Below, piece by piece: positions 712 through 17,970 of a stretch of 64,000 bases of DNA (within the stretch, counting starts at the first letter, position 1; each line of letters opens with the position of its first letter). The position numbers were made by a program, and so were the translations under genes. This DNA is from Alphaproteobacteria bacterium (GTDB taxonomy: Bacteria > Pseudomonadota > Alphaproteobacteria > UBA828): positions 352,001 through 416,000 of the forward strand of contig CBDCQT010000013.1 in the NCBI GenBank assembly GCA_965220745.1, given 5' to 3'. Under the pieces are notes generated by a model that did not search any database, had not been told where the DNA came from, and saw only the letters and a program-made list of their open reading frames with translations.

Positions 712-2325
712 ATGGGCAAGGGAGACGGCGGCGAGGGAGCGGCCGCCGGGGATGGCGGTCCTGCACTTGAGGTCGAGCTGACGCTCGGCGGCGATCCCGC
801 CGCCCTCGATCGCGGTTGGCGCGCGGCGGTTCCCGCGGATGGCGGCGGAACCGCCCAGCGGCTGCGGAGCACCTATTTCGACACTGGCGACTTCCGCCTG
901 CGTCGGCGAGGCTTCACGCTGCGCATTCGTGAGGATGGGGAACGGCTGGTCCAGACCCTGAAGTCCGACGGGCCGTCGTCAGCCGCTGCCGTGCTTAAGC
1001 GCAACGAGTGGACTCGCATGGTCGAGAAGCCAGTGCCGAGCCTCCCCGTCGCGCCTGATCCAGCGGTGCGCAATGCGGTGGGGCCGCTCAAATCCGCCGA
1101 ACTGGCGCCGACGTTCTCCACCGACGTGATGCGCCGCACCGCCGTGGTCGAGGTTGCCGCGCCGGATCACAGCACCGCCCTTGTCGAGCTCGCGCTCGAC
1201 AGCGGAGAGATCAAGGCGCGTGACCGGCGCGACACCGTCTCCGAGCTGGAGCTGGAACTGATCAAGGGGCCGGCAAGCGCACTCTACGAGCTCGCCATAA
1301 CGCTGCAGGCCTCTGCGCCGCTCCGCATACAGACGGCGAGCAAAGCCAAGCGCGGCTACGTCCTTGCTGGCGGGGAGGGCTACGCCGGCTACAAGGCGCC
1401 GGCGCTCGCGCTTGCGCGGGGCATCTCCGTAAACGAGGCCCTGGGCAAGATTTTTCGCGTGTGTGCCAATCAGTGTGCGGCGAATCACGATGCAGTGCTG
1501 GACCGCAGTGATCCGGAAGGCGTGCACCAGTTTCGTGTCGCGTTGCGCCGGATGCGCTCGGCTCTCGTGGTCTTCAAGACGGTTCTTCCGCCAGAACACA
1601 CTGCCTGGCTGAACAGGGAAGCCAGCCGTCTCATCGACGTGCTCGGCCCGGCACGCGATTGGGACGTGTTCATCACCGAGACGCTTGCGACCGTCCGGGC
1701 CGCCCGGCCGGACGACGAGACACTGGAGCGCCTCGCCGAAGCGGCCGAGACGGAGCGTGCCCGTGCCTACGGGCAGGCAGAGGCGCTGCGCGCGCCCGAC
1801 TACACGGAATTCCTGCTTCGCTTCGGCCGGTGGATCGAGACGGCGGGTTGGCGGGACGGGGCGAACCCTGCCGTGATCGATCAGCCGCTCGCACGCCTTG
1901 GAGGGCGCTTGCTCGACAAGCGCCACAAGCGCGTGTTGAAGCGCGGGCGCGACTTCGAGCAACTGTCGGACGCCGACCTGCACCGGCTCAGGATCTCGCT
2001 CAAGAAGCTGCGCTATGCAGGTGAGTTCTTCGCGACCCAGTTCCCAGACGGCAAGCCACGTCCCTACATCAGGACGTTGCGTCGGCTGCAAGACGATCTC
2101 GGCCAGCTCAACGACGCATCGGTTGCGGAACGCTGTCTGAAAGTTCTCCTCGATGCCCAGCGCGAAAGCGACCATCTCGCCGCGCTCGGAGTGGGTGCCG
2201 GGCAGGTGATCGGATGGCACGCTCGCGCCCGTGAGGAGACCCGGAGCCAAATGACCGAAGATTGGCACGCTTTCGCTGCCACCGAGCCCTATTGGCGCAC
2301 CACCGCGGCGGAATCAGGCGGCTGA
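712..2325 (+). CDS. CYTH + CHAD domain protein (inorganic triphosphatase / polyphosphate-binding)
   Basis: N-terminal EVEL, YFDT..LRRRGFTLRIR and ELELEL motifs (CYTH); C-terminal HQFRVALRRMRS, LHRLRISLKKLRY and LQDDLGQLND (CHAD). Start 712 or 646. Confidence 0.88.
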   Translation: MGKGDGGEGAAAGDGGPALEVELTLGGDPAALDRGWRAAVPADGGGTAQRLRSTYFDTGDFRLRRRGFTLRIREDGERLVQTLKSDGPSSAAAVLKRNEWTRMVEKPVPSLPVAPDPAVRNAVGPLKSAELAPTFSTDVMRRTAVVEVAAPDHSTALVELALDSGEIKARDRRDTVSELELELIKGPASALYELAITLQASAPLRIQTASKAKRGYVLAGGEGYAGYKAPALALARGISVNEALGKIFRVCANQCAANHDAVLDRSDPEGVHQFRVALRRMRSALVVFKTVLPPEHTAWLNREASRLIDVLGPARDWDVFITETLATVRAARPDDETLERLAEAAETERARAYGQAEALRAPDYTEFLLRFGRWIETAGWRDGANPAVIDQPLARLGGRLLDKRHKRVLKRGRDFEQLSDADLHRLRISLKKLRYAGEFFATQFPDGKPRPYIRTLRRLQDDLGQLNDASVAERCLKVLLDAQRESDHLAALGVGAGQVIGWHARAREETRSQMTEDWHAFAATEPYWRTTAAESGG

Positions 2326-5164: not shown

Positions 5165-6889
5165 ATGAAAGACAGAAAAGTTCTAAGCCGTGATCCACGG
5201 CGCTATACGCTGCCGTCGGAGCGCGCATTGGGCGCCGAGACGCATTCCTATATGCCCGAGCTTTGCGACCAGGTTCGGACGGGCAAGATCAGCCGGCGCG
5301 ACTTCCTGCGTCAGGCGGCGTTGCTCGGCATGGCGACCGGCACGGTCTATGCCATGGCCGACAAGCTGGCCGGAGGCGGTGACGTGATCGGCTCTGCGAT
5401 AGCCGACGAAATGCCAAAGGCGGGCGGCACGCTCAGGGTCTCCATGCGTGTGCAGGAGATGAGCGATCCTGCGTCCTTCGACTGGGGCGAGAAGGCGAAC
5501 GTCGCGCGCTTCATCGTCGAGTATCTGACCCGGACCAAGTCGGATAACGTCACGGTTCCCTACCTCGCCAAGAGTTGGGAGGCCTCCGACGACCTCAAGA
5601 CCTGGGTCTTCCATTTGAACGAGGGCATAACCTGGTCCAACGGCGACGCCTTCACCTCAGCTGACGTGGCCCACACGGTCAACCGCTGGCTCGACCCCGC
5701 GACCGGATCGTCCAACCTCGGGCTCTTCGGCGCCATGGTCGAGGAAGTCGACGGCGTCAAGCGGGGCATCCCCGGTGCGGTCGAGGTGATCGACGACCAC
5801 ACCATCCAATTCAACCTGAAACAGGCCGCTCTGGCCATGCCGGAGAACTTCTACAACTACCCGACCGCCATCGTGCATCGGGGCTTCGGTACGGACTACG
5901 AGGCAAATCTCTCGACGAATCCCATCGGCACTGGCCCGTTCGAGTTGGCCAACTTTGCAGTCGGCGAGGTGGCAATCCTGAAGAGGGCGCGAGACTGGTG
6001 GGCCGGGCCGTTCTACCTCGATGAAATCCACTACTTCGACCACGGCGAGGACACCAACGCCTGGGTCGCAGCGCTGGCGTCGCAGCAGGTAGACACGCTT
6101 TACCGATTGCCCAACAGCGCAATCGAGACGGTACAGGCTCTGCCATTCATGGAGATCCACAAGGCGACAACGGCGCAGACCGCGGTCATGCGCTTCCGCG
6201 TTACCGAGAAGCCCTTCGACAATCTCAAGCTCCGCCAGGCGGTGGCGGCCTGCATGGACCATCAAGAGATCCTGGACAAGGCGTTCAAGGGTTACGGCCA
6301 GATCGCCGAGAATCATCATGTTTGTCAGATCCATCCCGAGTATGCGGCGCTGCCGCCGCTCAAGCGGGATATAGAGAAGGCGAAGGCGCTCTTGGCCGAG
6401 GCCGGCTATGCCGATGGGATCACGCTCGAGATCGCCAACGGCGACACTGAGGGCCCCTGGCAGACGGACGCCTGTGCGATATTCAAGAACCAGGCTGCGC
6501 CGGCGGGCATCAATATCGAGATCAACAAGATGCCGGCCAGCCAGTACTGGGAGGTCTGGGACAAGGCTCCGTGGGGCTACACCGCCTGGACGCATCGTGC
6601 GCTAGGCACCATGGTGCTGGGGCTTGCCTACCGGGCCGGCGTGCCGTGGAACGAATGCGCCTACGACAACCCGGCGTTCGATGCAGCGCTCGACGATGCA
6701 GAGGGTACGCTCGACGTGAACGAGCGCAAGAAGAAGATGGCTGTCTGCCAGAAGATCCTGCAGGACGATGCGATCATCCCGCAGCCCTTCTGGCGCTCTG
6801 TGTTCAAGGCATCGAATAAGCGGGTGAAGGGTCTGATGACCCACCCCACGCTTTACCACCAGTTCCACGAGGTTTGGCTGGACGGTTGA
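5165..6889 (+). CDS. Dpp/Opp-family (family 5) ABC substrate-binding protein with Tat signal
   Basis: ISRRDFLRQAALLG Tat motif; PYLAKSWEASDDLKTWVFHLNEGITWSNGDAFTSADV; PIGTGPF; GGAGG RBS before ATG 5165. Confidence 0.9.
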   Translation: MKDRKVLSRDPRRYTLPSERALGAETHSYMPELCDQVRTGKISRRDFLRQAALLGMATGTVYAMADKLAGGGDVIGSAIADEMPKAGGTLRVSMRVQEMSDPASFDWGEKANVARFIVEYLTRTKSDNVTVPYLAKSWEASDDLKTWVFHLNEGITWSNGDAFTSADVAHTVNRWLDPATGSSNLGLFGAMVEEVDGVKRGIPGAVEVIDDHTIQFNLKQAALAMPENFYNYPTAIVHRGFGTDYEANLSTNPIGTGPFELANFAVGEVAILKRARDWWAGPFYLDEIHYFDHGEDTNAWVAALASQQVDTLYRLPNSAIETVQALPFMEIHKATTAQTAVMRFRVTEKPFDNLKLRQAVAACMDHQEILDKAFKGYGQIAENHHVCQIHPEYAALPPLKRDIEKAKALLAEAGYADGITLEIANGDTEGPWQTDACAIFKNQAAPAGINIEINKMPASQYWEVWDKAPWGYTAWTHRALGTMVLGLAYRAGVPWNECAYDNPAFDAALDDAEGTLDVNERKKKMAVCQKILQDDAIIPQPFWRSVFKASNKRVKGLMTHPTLYHQFHEVWLDG

Positions 6890-6896
6890 GCAGAGA

Positions 6897-6928
6897 GCGG
6901 CGCGGGAGGCACAAGTCTCCCGCGCCGC
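6897..6928 (+). terminator. GC-rich stem-loop after the SBP gene (terminator or mRNA-stabilising hairpin)
   Basis: gcggcgcgggag / ctcccgcgccgc 12-bp perfect stem, 8 nt after the stop codon; only a short T tract follows. Confidence 0.6.
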
Positions 6929-6968
6929 GATTTCCACTTGGGCAAGTGCCCTTGGTGCGGGGCGTCTA

Positions 6969-7239
6969 CTAGCCTGGATTTCTCACCAATGTCACAGCCT
7001 GCGTCGCGCCCAGACGTTCGATCCGCCAGGAGCGGGCCGAAAAGCGTATCAGGGAATACGGTTGAGGTTCGCGACGCCGCGGGCGAGCGCCGGGGCGCGA
7101 CCCGAAGGGCGGTGCTTTCAGGCCGACAGAGTGCGTCAAGCCGTTTGCCCGATGCCCCACATCGCGCTGCACGGCTTTCCTGCTCTGTCGGCCTGAAAGC
7201 ACCGCGCAGACCATGACATTGGTGAGAAAGCCGGGCTAG
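6969..7239 (+). mobile_element. MITE-like structured repeat, copy 1 (271 bp, CTAG at both ends, 26-bp TIRs)
   Basis: Left end ctagcctggatttctcaccaatgtca, right end tgacattggtgagaaagccgggctag; perfect internal 23-bp stem (7109-7131/7183-7205); second copy at 17699-17970. Confidence 0.85.
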
Positions 7240-7254
7240 ACACCGGCGTTCGGC

Positions 7255-8187
7255 ATGGTCCAGCTGATCATCCGGCGCATCGGCATGATGATCCTCATCA
7301 TGCTCGTGGTCGCTCTGTTGCTTTTCCTTATTAACGAGGGCGACCCCCGCCTCATCGCCCGCAGCGTTCTCGGCCCCTACGCGCAAGACCAGCAGCTCGA
7401 CACCTGGGTCATCGAGAACGGCTACGACCGTTCCGTCATTGTCCGCTATTTCGAATGGATCGGCCGAATATTCTCCGGCGATCTCGGAGACTCGGTCATC
7501 TACAAGAGGCCGGTCAGCGAGATCTTCTGGGACCGCCTGGGCAATACGGGCATCCTGGCGGGCGTCACCTTCGTCATCATGGTGCTGATCGCACTCACCC
7601 TCGGCGTGCTGGCGGGGATGAAGGAAGGCTCCCTGCAGGACCGGGCGATCTCGGTCTTCTCGATCATCACCACCTCGATCCCCGAATATGCGAGCGCCGT
7701 CTTCCTGGTCGGGATCTTCGTCTTCTGGCTCGGCTGGTTGCCCGGCACCTCGTCGATGACGTCCGGGTTCGACCCGGTTCAGATGATCCTGCCTGTACTT
7801 GTGCTGACCTTATATGGCTTCGGCTACATCGCGCGCATGACGCGCGCGTCGATGGCCGAGGTGATGACCACGCCTTACATACGAACGGCGGTGCTCAAGG
7901 GCCTGCCCTACCGGCACATCATCCTCAAGCACGCCTTGAGAAACGCGCTGATCGCGCCCTTCACCGTGATCATGCTGCAGATCAACTGGCTGCTGTCCGG
8001 CGTGGTCGTGACCGAGTTTGCCTTCGGCTACAAGGGGTTCGGCGCGCTGCTTCTGGAGGCGGCGCTCCGGCGCGACATCTTCGTCATCGAGGCCTGCGGC
8101 GTCGCGGCGGTCTTCGTCGCGGTCTTCACCCAGACCGTAGGCGATCTTGGCTACACCTATCTGAATCCGAGGATCAGGTTCAAGTGA
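7255..8187 (+). CDS. ABC transporter permease (DppB-like)
   Basis: GDLGDS and RMTRASMAEVMTTPYIRTAVLKGL...HALRNAL (EAA-like loop); hydrophobic. Confidence 0.9.
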   Translation: MVQLIIRRIGMMILIMLVVALLLFLINEGDPRLIARSVLGPYAQDQQLDTWVIENGYDRSVIVRYFEWIGRIFSGDLGDSVIYKRPVSEIFWDRLGNTGILAGVTFVIMVLIALTLGVLAGMKEGSLQDRAISVFSIITTSIPEYASAVFLVGIFVFWLGWLPGTSSMTSGFDPVQMILPVLVLTLYGFGYIARMTRASMAEVMTTPYIRTAVLKGLPYRHIILKHALRNALIAPFTVIMLQINWLLSGVVVTEFAFGYKGFGALLLEAALRRDIFVIEACGVAAVFVAVFTQTVGDLGYTYLNPRIRFK

Positions 8188-17698: not shown

Positions 17699-17970
17699 CT
17701 AGCCCGCATTTCTCATCAGGGTCACGGCCTGCGTCGCGCCTAGGCGTTCGATCCGCCAGGAGCGGACCGAAAAGCGTATCAGGGAATACGGTTGAGGCCC
17801 GCGACGACGCGGGCGGGCGCCCGGGCACGACCCGAAGGGCGGCGCTGTCCGGCCGGCAGGGTGCGTCACGGCCCTTGCCCGATGTCCCCGCATCGCGCTG
17901 CGCGCCGTTCCTACCCTGTCGGCCGGACAGCGCCGCGCAGACCATGACCGTGGTGAGAAATGCGGGCTAG
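17699..17970 (+). mobile_element. MITE-like structured repeat, copy 2 (272 bp, CTAG at both ends, 26-bp TIRs)
   Basis: Left end ctagcccgcatttctcatcagggtca, right end tgaccgtggtgagaaatgcgggctag; collinear with 6969-7239; internal stem 17839-17862/17913-17936. Confidence 0.85.

Follow-up and report, generated by a model that had tools for sequence, protein, structure and literature searches.

A miniature inverted-repeat element with IS1380-type ends and a covarying three-armed fold in an uncultured alphaproteobacterium

According to the available part of PMC3184786, bacterial miniature inverted-repeat transposable elements (MITEs) typically form long stem-loops of high stability, and compensatory changes have been reported for one of them, bcr1. 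Another, MITEPye1, is tied to IS1182 in the accessible text of PMC11578231. The IS1380 family of insertion sequences appears in the consulted portion of PMC10813416 as the prokaryotic outgroup of piggyBac, for which the same portion gives a TTAA duplication with TTAG and CTAA variants and CCC-type ends. Here, we describe a 263-bp MITE with two copies in a stretch of 64,000 nucleotides from an alphaproteobacterium (assembly GCA_965220745.1, contig CBDCQT010000013.1, positions 352,001 to 416,000), hereafter the window. The window corresponds to C13:352001-416000 of the source genome, G000 (4.82 Mb in 13 contigs, 67% G+C, 99.96% complete). We hold, with a probability of roughly 0.8, that this is a MITE with IS1380-type ends that is moved in trans, and that its pairing is kept in propagating lineages and not as a plus-strand RNA serving the host.

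Termini, target sites and a probable IS1380-family partner

A preliminary description of this DNA had proposed a non-autonomous element that is bounded by terminal inverted repeats and targets CTAG, and our analysis confirmed this. Copy 1 occupies 6969-7239, and the second copy, at 17699-17970 in the same orientation, is 86% identical to it over 271 nt, in two ungapped blocks of 87% and 84% identity. CTAG stands at both termini of each copy. The ends form inverted repeats as described: the arms of copy 2 are 41 nt long and 85% complementary, and the folds close with a stem of ~34 pairs. The window was said to hold no transposase, and indeed none of the families PF01609, PF13701 and PF13358 matched within it.

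The source genome contains 13 full-length copies, 79-100% identical to copy 1, and ~15 fragments. Elsewhere in the genus, 18 of 20 species-genomes had the MITE, and a weaker match occurred in one of four genomes from other genera of the family. The MITE proper reads CCCG(C/G)ATTTCTCACCA...TGGTGAGAAA(T/G)(G/C)CGGG over 263 bp; its termini can be given as CCCG(G/C)ATTTCTCAC, and the terminal motif is also written CCCGSATTTCTCAC. Perfect 4-bp direct repeats flanked 10 of the 13 G000 copies (8 CTAG, 2 TTAA), and the remaining three carried TTAG...CTAG, CCAG...CTAG and CTAG...CTAA (left...right, one each). Genus-wide, identical 4-mers flanked 33 of 103 distinct copies (25 CTAG, 4 TTAA, 4 CTAA); the differing flanks of the others are consistent with old insertions.

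Empty sites, suggested earlier as a check, were found at orthologous loci. At the copy 1 site, genomes G006 and G015 read ...GGGGCGTCTA CTAG ACACCGGCG..., and at the copy 2 locus of G006 the element is absent and the flanks overlap by four bases in a single CTAG. The copy 1 junction also appeared element-free in contigs of RNA libraries (four metatranscriptome runs searched as contigs, which show neither strand nor ends), with 6968 joined to 7236, 267 bases skipped and four letters common. These contigs came from three runs of two studies and are ~90% like the window, so they derive from relatives. Given the repeats around the copies and the single CTAG at empty sites, the flanking 4-mer is a duplicated YTAR target, and both window copies are insertions that postdate the split from a sister species. 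The element is thus shorter than 500 bp and without a transposase gene, has terminal inverted repeats, a target-site duplication and dispersed copies that are present or absent between genomes, and shares its ends with an insertion sequence, as follows.

The preliminary description had derived the element from the IS5 or IS630 families. This derivation did not hold, since it is IS1380-family elements that have matching ends and a matching 4-bp YTAR duplication. In G000, a 464-aa IS1380-family gene (PF13701, E 6e-165) is present in six copies of identical class. Alignment of these copies with their flanks gave the ends CCCGGATTATTCGTGG... and ...CCATGAATARGTCGGG, that is, CCCGG.../...CGGG, with matching flank words CTAG, TTAA, TTAG, CTAG, TTAG and CTAA. 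Because TTAG...TTAG and CTAA...CTAA are not palindromic, the duplication comprises four bases and not two. A second IS1380-family element, here called ISx, is truncated in G000 (C12:427006-428000), where it follows CTAG and begins with CCCGTATTTCTCACGAG. In the sister species G011, ISx is intact, 1646 bp long and found in five places at 96% protein identity; locus L080 reads CTAG, CCCGGATTTCTCACGAG...CTCGTGAGAAATCCGGG, CTAG, and a second copy (L090) has CTAG on the left only. Its 456-aa protein matched NF033539 (IS1380 family transposase) at 404.6 bits against a cut-off of 180, and PF13701 at 499.9 bits. Long transposase-coding elements with the same ends, which the preliminary description had recommended seeking, were therefore found: 14 of 14 terminal bases are common to the MITE and ISx. 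Copy 1 itself differs from the 14-nt ISx inverted repeat by one mismatch (CCTGG instead of CCCGG).

Because the outermost 14 bases equal the ISx ends, an IS1380-family DDE transposase probably mobilises the MITE in trans, and we infer from these sequence matches that the MITE is the non-autonomous partner of an IS1380-family element. IS1380 elements are characterised by CC... ends and a 4-5 bp duplication in ISfinder, and ISx and the 464-aa copies have both CC... ends and a 4-bp duplication. No IS1380-derived MITE was described among the titles and abstracts listed by the literature search (supplements and ISfinder lay outside that search), and the literature search returned no report on the IS1380 family with a 4-bp target-site duplication.

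Other sequences in G000 carry the same end. When a parent element was sought in G000 among end-motif pairs 0.5-6 kb apart with at most 2 mismatches per end, one pair was found besides ordinary MITE copies and the IS110-interrupted copy (C13:311126 to 314922, 3797 bp); the partner itself was found by means of PF13701. About 40 solo or paired end motifs (CCCGCATTTCTCACCA, at most 2 mismatches) occur in the genome, none in the window and nearly all after YTAR. Some of them form mini-elements (45, 65 and 122 bp), and others enclose different interiors between the same ends, so several MITE families use this terminus. At C12:101377 and C13:28450, the end motif and an immediate inverted copy precede a P4-like integrase gene by ~115 nt; the two sites are identical over their first 864 bp, and one integrase gene is interrupted, with an IS1380-like gene beyond the break.

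Fold, parts and gene context of the element

The plus strand of copy 1 folds at -177.9 kcal/mol (z -13.3) and that of copy 2 at -191.3 kcal/mol (z -12.7), with 0 of 200 shuffles as stable in either case; the minus strand of copy 1 is nearly equal (-175.8 kcal/mol, z -11.7, 200 shuffles). The shape is a three-armed Y, made of an end stem (6969-7002 with 7206-7239), hairpin A, a junction hairpin and hairpin B. The parts and neighbouring features are listed below, with their evidence in brackets.

5228..6889, plus strand: family-5 solute-binding protein gene, upstream of copy 1 (gene call; PF00496, SBP_bac_5, 256.7 bits)
6969..6972, plus strand: left target-site duplication of copy 1, CTAG (single CTAG without the element in G006 and G015)
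6973..7235, plus strand: copy 1, the MITE proper, 263 bp, no open reading frame of note (13 full-length genome copies)
6973..7002, plus strand: left terminal inverted repeat with extension (copy alignment; ISx ends)
7003..7101, plus strand: hairpin A (folds; helices 2-4 97.9-99.4% paired)
7102..7108, plus strand: two-pair mini-hairpin or junction, CCCGAAGGG (helix 5 invariant; minor-base fraction 0.006)
7109..7205, plus strand: hairpin B, a long variable stem (helix 6, both-side changes in 18/33 pairs)
7206..7235, plus strand: right terminal inverted repeat with extension (folds, copy alignment)
7236..7239, plus strand: right target-site duplication of copy 1, CTAG (empty sites in relatives)
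7255..8187, plus strand: ABC-transporter permease gene, downstream of copy 1 (gene call; PF00528, BPD_transp_1, 102.6 bits)
17699..17970, plus strand: copy 2, 264 bp with CTAG on each side (sequence, fold, empty site in G006)

Hairpin A is the best-conserved region, with a mean minor-base fraction of 0.043. Its apex stem is CGTAT/ATACG or CGTAG/CTACG depending on the copy, and its apical loop shows no conservation within the genus. Hairpin B holds most of the compensated changes, and 92.3% of helix 6 cells are paired. A 30-nt G+C-rich insertion at the hairpin B tip marks a subfamily (G000:C11:663633-663933, L013), to which element variants of ~295-300 nt in G004, G012, G013 and G018 also belong. 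Two further copies, L031 (G000:C10:219400-221800) and L032 (G000:C13:12100-14500), are split at the hairpin B tip, element position ~175-179, by a 1505-bp IS110-family element with CT on each side at both junctions. Its 383-aa protein matched NF033542 at 254.5 bits. A third copy of this IS110-family element, 99.9% identical (C13:160117-161265), is inserted away from any MITE, and its site has CT-CGC in common with the others. The presence of IS110 copies in two MITEs makes the MITE a landing site for this RNA-guided IS110-type element.

The siting of the copies follows the scarcity of the target. Against base-composition expectation, G000 contains 1935 CTAG (14,727 expected), 1383 TTAG (7,297), 1406 CTAA (7,197) and 757 TTAA (3,566), so that YTAR words reach 0.13-0.21 of expectation. 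The stop codon of a neighbouring gene lies within the duplicated YTAR at 42 of 103 copies (28 at the left end, 14 at the right), and a gene 3' end lies within 30 nt of an element end at 57 of 103, based on gene calls from a codon-usage script trained on 445 long open reading frames of G000. Many copies sit exactly on stop codons because YTAR is scarce and includes the stops TAG and TAA. When copies were grouped by their flanks into 85 loci, those between co-directional genes were 29 in sense and 18 in antisense orientation (p = 0.14); 16 loci lay between convergent and 13 between divergent genes, with 9 undetermined. A stop codon abuts the left end only at 21 loci and the right end only at 11 (p = 0.11), indicating at most a mild preference in orientation to genes.

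Copy 2 has a divergent Rieske oxygenase gene on one side and a plus-strand gene on the other. In the sister species G011, its locus is split: the left flank and the first 23 nt of the element are at C3:1380050-1380521 (1.38 Mb), and the remainder with the right flank is at C3:2060949-2064687 (L224, 2.06 Mb) on the opposite strand, which looks like an inversion via recombination between MITE copies. The sole Rfam match at gathering level in the window, Cis52_sRNA (known from Ruegeria), lies at 7767-7942 on the minus strand (60.9 bits against 56), antisense inside the permease gene just 3' of copy 1.

Pairing among the copies

The two window copies were reported to differ by compensated changes, and reading both sequences we found the reported changes to be correct; in the long stem, four pairs are altered on both sides and one A-U is changed to G-U, as claimed. 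To these two copies, which belong to different subfamilies, a larger alignment added the copies of the genus: it holds 100 of the 103 copies, leaving out L013 and L063 (insertions of 30-50 nt) and L033 (equal to copy 1 within the element). The structure scored was copy 1's own minimum-energy fold, which favours the fold over the slid-partner control. The covariation persisted in this alignment. Both sides had changed in 38 of 108 pairs, compared with 21.7 +/- 2.3 in shuffles; none of 500 shuffles reached 38, and slid partners gave 10-14. Standard pairs made up 95.6% of 10,799 cells (92.1% in shuffles), and 367 cells were altered on both sides (126.6 in shuffles). The pairs most often broken were columns 150/233 (41 copies), 163/220 (56 copies), 174/210 (35 copies) and 21/255 (36 copies). 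These results show that pairing is maintained across copies.

Part of this covariation separates subfamilies. Element position 5 switches from C-G to G-C, with 66 copies in the CCCGC majority and 22 in the ISx-like CCCGG subfamily, which includes copy 1. Covariation in the terminal repeats is expected, because one transposase must recognise both ends. A further part moves between copies in blocks. Among 13 orthologous copy pairs, whose flanks are 87-99% identical, 0 to 40 positions differ within the element (the largest counts include a 30-nt insertion). In the strongly differing orthologues, clustered changes swap the hairpin A tip, or the entire hairpin B tip on both arms, and the swapped tips carry states present in other copies. 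Such clustered both-arm replacements with states of other copies indicate gene conversion between copies, and since conversion carries both arms at once, complementarity is kept without selection at the locus.

Private variants, present in a single copy only, served as a proxy for change after insertion, and strand was read from the fact that a plus-strand G·U pair is A·C on the minus strand. The private variants comprised 18 G·U pairs, 24 A·C pairs, 44 other mismatches and 13 double compensations. Rare variants (in one or two copies) per column were similarly dense in the duplication (0.62), ends (0.78), stem extension (0.79), hairpin A (0.67), junction (0.57) and hairpin B (0.66). With balanced private variants and even density, neither a strand bias nor a region-specific constraint is therefore seen after insertion. 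The preliminary description had gone from covariation to selection on plus-strand RNA, and this step is not borne out by the private variants, the orientation of copies, Rfam or the gene-conversion blocks.

We propose the following sequence of events. The MITE inserts at YTAR tetranucleotides, mostly CTAG, and duplicates them, presumably moved in trans by an IS1380-family DDE transposase. The Y fold, with end stem, hairpin A and hairpin B, is probably kept as a self-complementary DNA design, and the compensated differences are probably old differences between source subfamilies, which gene conversion between copies reshuffles by replacing both arms of a hairpin tip together. In propagating lineages, pairing is probably maintained either because the element itself is under selection or because long near-palindromes have a mutational bias, in which one hairpin arm serves as the template for correcting mismatches in the other. 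Copies in operons, such as copy 1 between the binding-protein and permease genes, would probably be co-transcribed, and the stable fold of copy 1 in mRNA could alter decay or downstream expression, by analogy with other intergenic palindromic repeats.

Alternative readings and described systems

Sequence from the interior is also found beneath other termini. Searching with a profile of the 100 copies, we detected a diverged relative in a genome of another genus of the family (G021, locus L051, E 2.3e-12, model positions 56-214). It keeps the 24-mer GCGTATCAGGGAATACGGTCGAGG, and the surrounding stem is altered on both sides, from GCGGGCC/GGCCCGC to GAAGCCC/GGGCTTC. The whole element (L051 1444-1748, 307 nt) folds into a Y at -196.9 kcal/mol and ends in GAGCCTGTTTGGGAATTC... 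(GAGCCTGTT...) with TTA on both sides, unlike the MITE; we take these GAG... ends with TTA flanks to be IS5-like. Among five matches to its end motif, no pair enclosed a gene that could mark a parent. A Rhizomicrobium-labelled metagenome-assembled genome (MAG; L197) carries the same core inside a further, different outer stem and is truncated where the contig ends, and the T-loop-like GTTCGATCC noted in the preliminary description is not kept there. In another family (G030, locus L052, ~1455-1715, minus strand), a 274-nt Y-shaped element with 25-nt GAGCATGTTT... ends holds the hairpin B tip (E 2e-6). The flanks of these related Y-shaped elements are of the TTA/CTA type. A class-wide sample of 401 genomes contained the 24-mer core, with at most one mismatch, in two of them, G000 and G021, and viral contigs had no match to it; no paper was found for any of four versions of the 16-18-nt core. 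The interior has thus travelled between MITE types, which reflects either chimera formation among mobile repeats or, less probably, a function of the interior itself.

Several of our results weigh against the reading proposed above. The foreign termini around the G021 and G030 interiors are not what mere filler would be expected to show. The supposed partner is sparse: ISx-like protein (at least 88% identity) occurs in 3 of the 20 other genus genomes, while the MITE is in 18, and any IS1380 match (E<=1e-30) in 10 of 20; no intact ISx was found in G000, only one copy cut after ~residue 300; and the interiors of the MITE and ISx share only words of at most 14 nt (E >=0.08), with nothing in common beyond the ends. 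The 13 private double compensations exceed the expectation for independent mutation, and they may be imports from unsampled copies. Moreover, copy 1 is identical at 263 of 263 positions in G000 and G011 (locus L033, G011:C3:1366105-1369375), where its flanks are 89.4% (595 nt upstream) and 94.8% (600 nt downstream) identical, and G006, about as close to G000 in this region, has the empty site. This could be so if a currently active subfamily had recently inserted twice, independently, at the same scarce CTAG; recombination over a short patch or strong constraint could also account for it. The intact ISx in G011 and a second G000 copy with 3 differences from copy 1 (C10:794977) fit the option of independent insertions. 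The remaining such point concerns the strand: four G·U pairs are fixed on the plus strand (columns 50/120, 51/119, 55/116 and 166/217), three of them in hairpin A, and no A·C pair is fixed, and among the non-fixed pairs of hairpin A, G·U cells outnumber A·C cells by 96 to 30.

This strand asymmetry is one argument for a different reading, in which the interior, and hairpin A in particular, functions as a structured plus-strand RNA and the MITE ends merely spread it. Such an RNA could come from a mobile non-coding gene, act in cis within mRNAs or guide a transposase. The excess of covariation over the shuffle and slid controls would agree with such a molecule, as would the compensated stem round an unchanged 24-mer in G021 and the Rhizomicrobium MAG, yet the core was found in only two of the 401 class genomes sampled, G000 included, and the apical loop of hairpin A varies within the genus. 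The asymmetry is absent from hairpin B (79 G·U cells, 47 of them at one pair, versus 71 A·C) and from the end stem (77 versus 60), the minus strand folds equally well, and the private variants are strand-neutral and alike in density in stems, loops and duplication. The sense excess is weak (29 versus 18 overall, 21 versus 11 for stop codons inside the duplication) and not significant (p 0.11-0.14). Pieces of other MITE copies do appear in the RNA-library contigs at depth 2-3, where DNA carry-over is possible; at the copy 1 locus, the element is only thinly covered, by sequence from other copies or relatives. A scan of 6800-7400 gave no promoter-like and no terminator-like site, and the Rfam search, a check also proposed earlier, gave no match in the element at gathering level (best sub-threshold score 29 bits against 168). 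As for guiding a transposase, we know of no use of guide RNAs by IS1380 enzymes. Taken together, we regard a functional plus-strand RNA as unlikely. We are equally doubtful of a related idea, that the Y interior is a functional RNA or single-stranded DNA borne by at least two MITE chassis with different transposase partners; if it were true, the fixed G·U pairs and the cross-genus compensated stems would reflect selection on the molecule and not on transposition.

Other origins of the element are less probable still. Descent from IS5 or IS630 would suit CTAG and TA targets, which are typical of both families, the IS5-type (PF01609) and IS630-type (PF13358) transposase genes of G000, and the presumably IS5-like GAG... 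ends and TTA flanks of the G021 element. However, the terminal 14 bases agree with an IS1380-family element, IS1380 copies make the same YTAR duplications, TTAG...TTAG comprises four bases and not two, and none of the end-motif matches found abuts the PF01609 or PF13358 genes; the TTAA...TTAA flanks of MITE copies also differ from the 2-bp TA duplication of IS630. This makes such descent very improbable. We give even less credence to a repetitive extragenic palindromic (REP)/REPIN-like or IS200/IS605-like element whose hairpins would be recognised by a Y1 transposase (RAYT, the REP-associated tyrosine transposase, or TnpA) that moves it as single-stranded DNA. In favour of this are the strongly palindromic sequence of the MITE, its intergenic siting, its compensated stems and its use as a target by an IS110-family element, since elements of that kind also target REPs; but Y1 elements lack target duplications and terminal inverted repeats, and here both are clean, with a 4-bp duplication. 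Y1_Tnp (PF01797) had no match in the 99.96%-complete G000, and control genomes were positive. We also rejected a tRNA origin of the ends: the 16-nt end resembles a T-stem, acceptor and CCA, but ARAGORN found no tRNA at any copy or solo end, and the bases preceding the end are YTAR and not a T-loop.

Read as a MITE with IS1380-type ends, the element accounts for ~30 intergenic repeats per genome in an uncultured, partly sponge-associated Rhodospirillales genus, and its YTAR target, five to eight times rarer than expected, explains the siting on stop codons. It exemplifies the pairing of a MITE with an IS1380-family element, which did not surface in the literature searched, and its target and ends show piggyBac-like features on the bacterial side of that kinship. 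It also shapes genomes, as an IS110-family landing pad and a likely inversion substrate in a sister species. For RNA discovery it is a caution, since covariation between copies of palindromic mobile repeats need not mean RNA function: subfamily differences, co-evolution of two ends and both-arm gene conversion are other sources.

Among described systems, the REP/BIME (bacterial interspersed mosaic element) repeats offer a likeness of position. They occur in ABC-transporter operons, for example in malE-malF of E. coli, and copy 1 likewise is a stable palindromic repeat between binding-protein and permease genes. REPs, however, are ~35 nt long, have no inverted ends or duplications and are tied to RAYT transposases, whereas no RAYT-type Y1 transposase was found in G000. 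The bacterial MITEs, such as Correia/nemis, ERIC, Chunjie, bcr1 and MITEPye1, are alike in build, as far as the accessible parts of the sources describe them: they too are small and non-coding, occur in many intergenic copies with terminal inverted repeats and a target-site duplication, and are predicted to form a long and very stable stem-loop, in bcr1 with compensatory changes. The present MITE differs from them in its IS1380-type ends, in a three-armed Y of ~-178 kcal/mol in place of one hairpin, and in the recurrence of its interior parts under other termini in other genera. With IS1380 elements it shares 4-bp YTAR duplications and CC(C)G ends, and its outermost 14 bases are those of ISx, but it has no transposase gene and its inverted repeat extends to ~34 bp. 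With piggyBac, as portrayed in the portion of the source consulted, it shares the 4-bp TTAA-type duplication and CCC... ends, in the form of a YTAR target that includes TTAA and of CCCG... ends, although piggyBac elements are autonomous and belong to eukaryotes. To that extent, a YTAR target with CCCG ends is consistent with the kinship of IS1380 and piggyBac.

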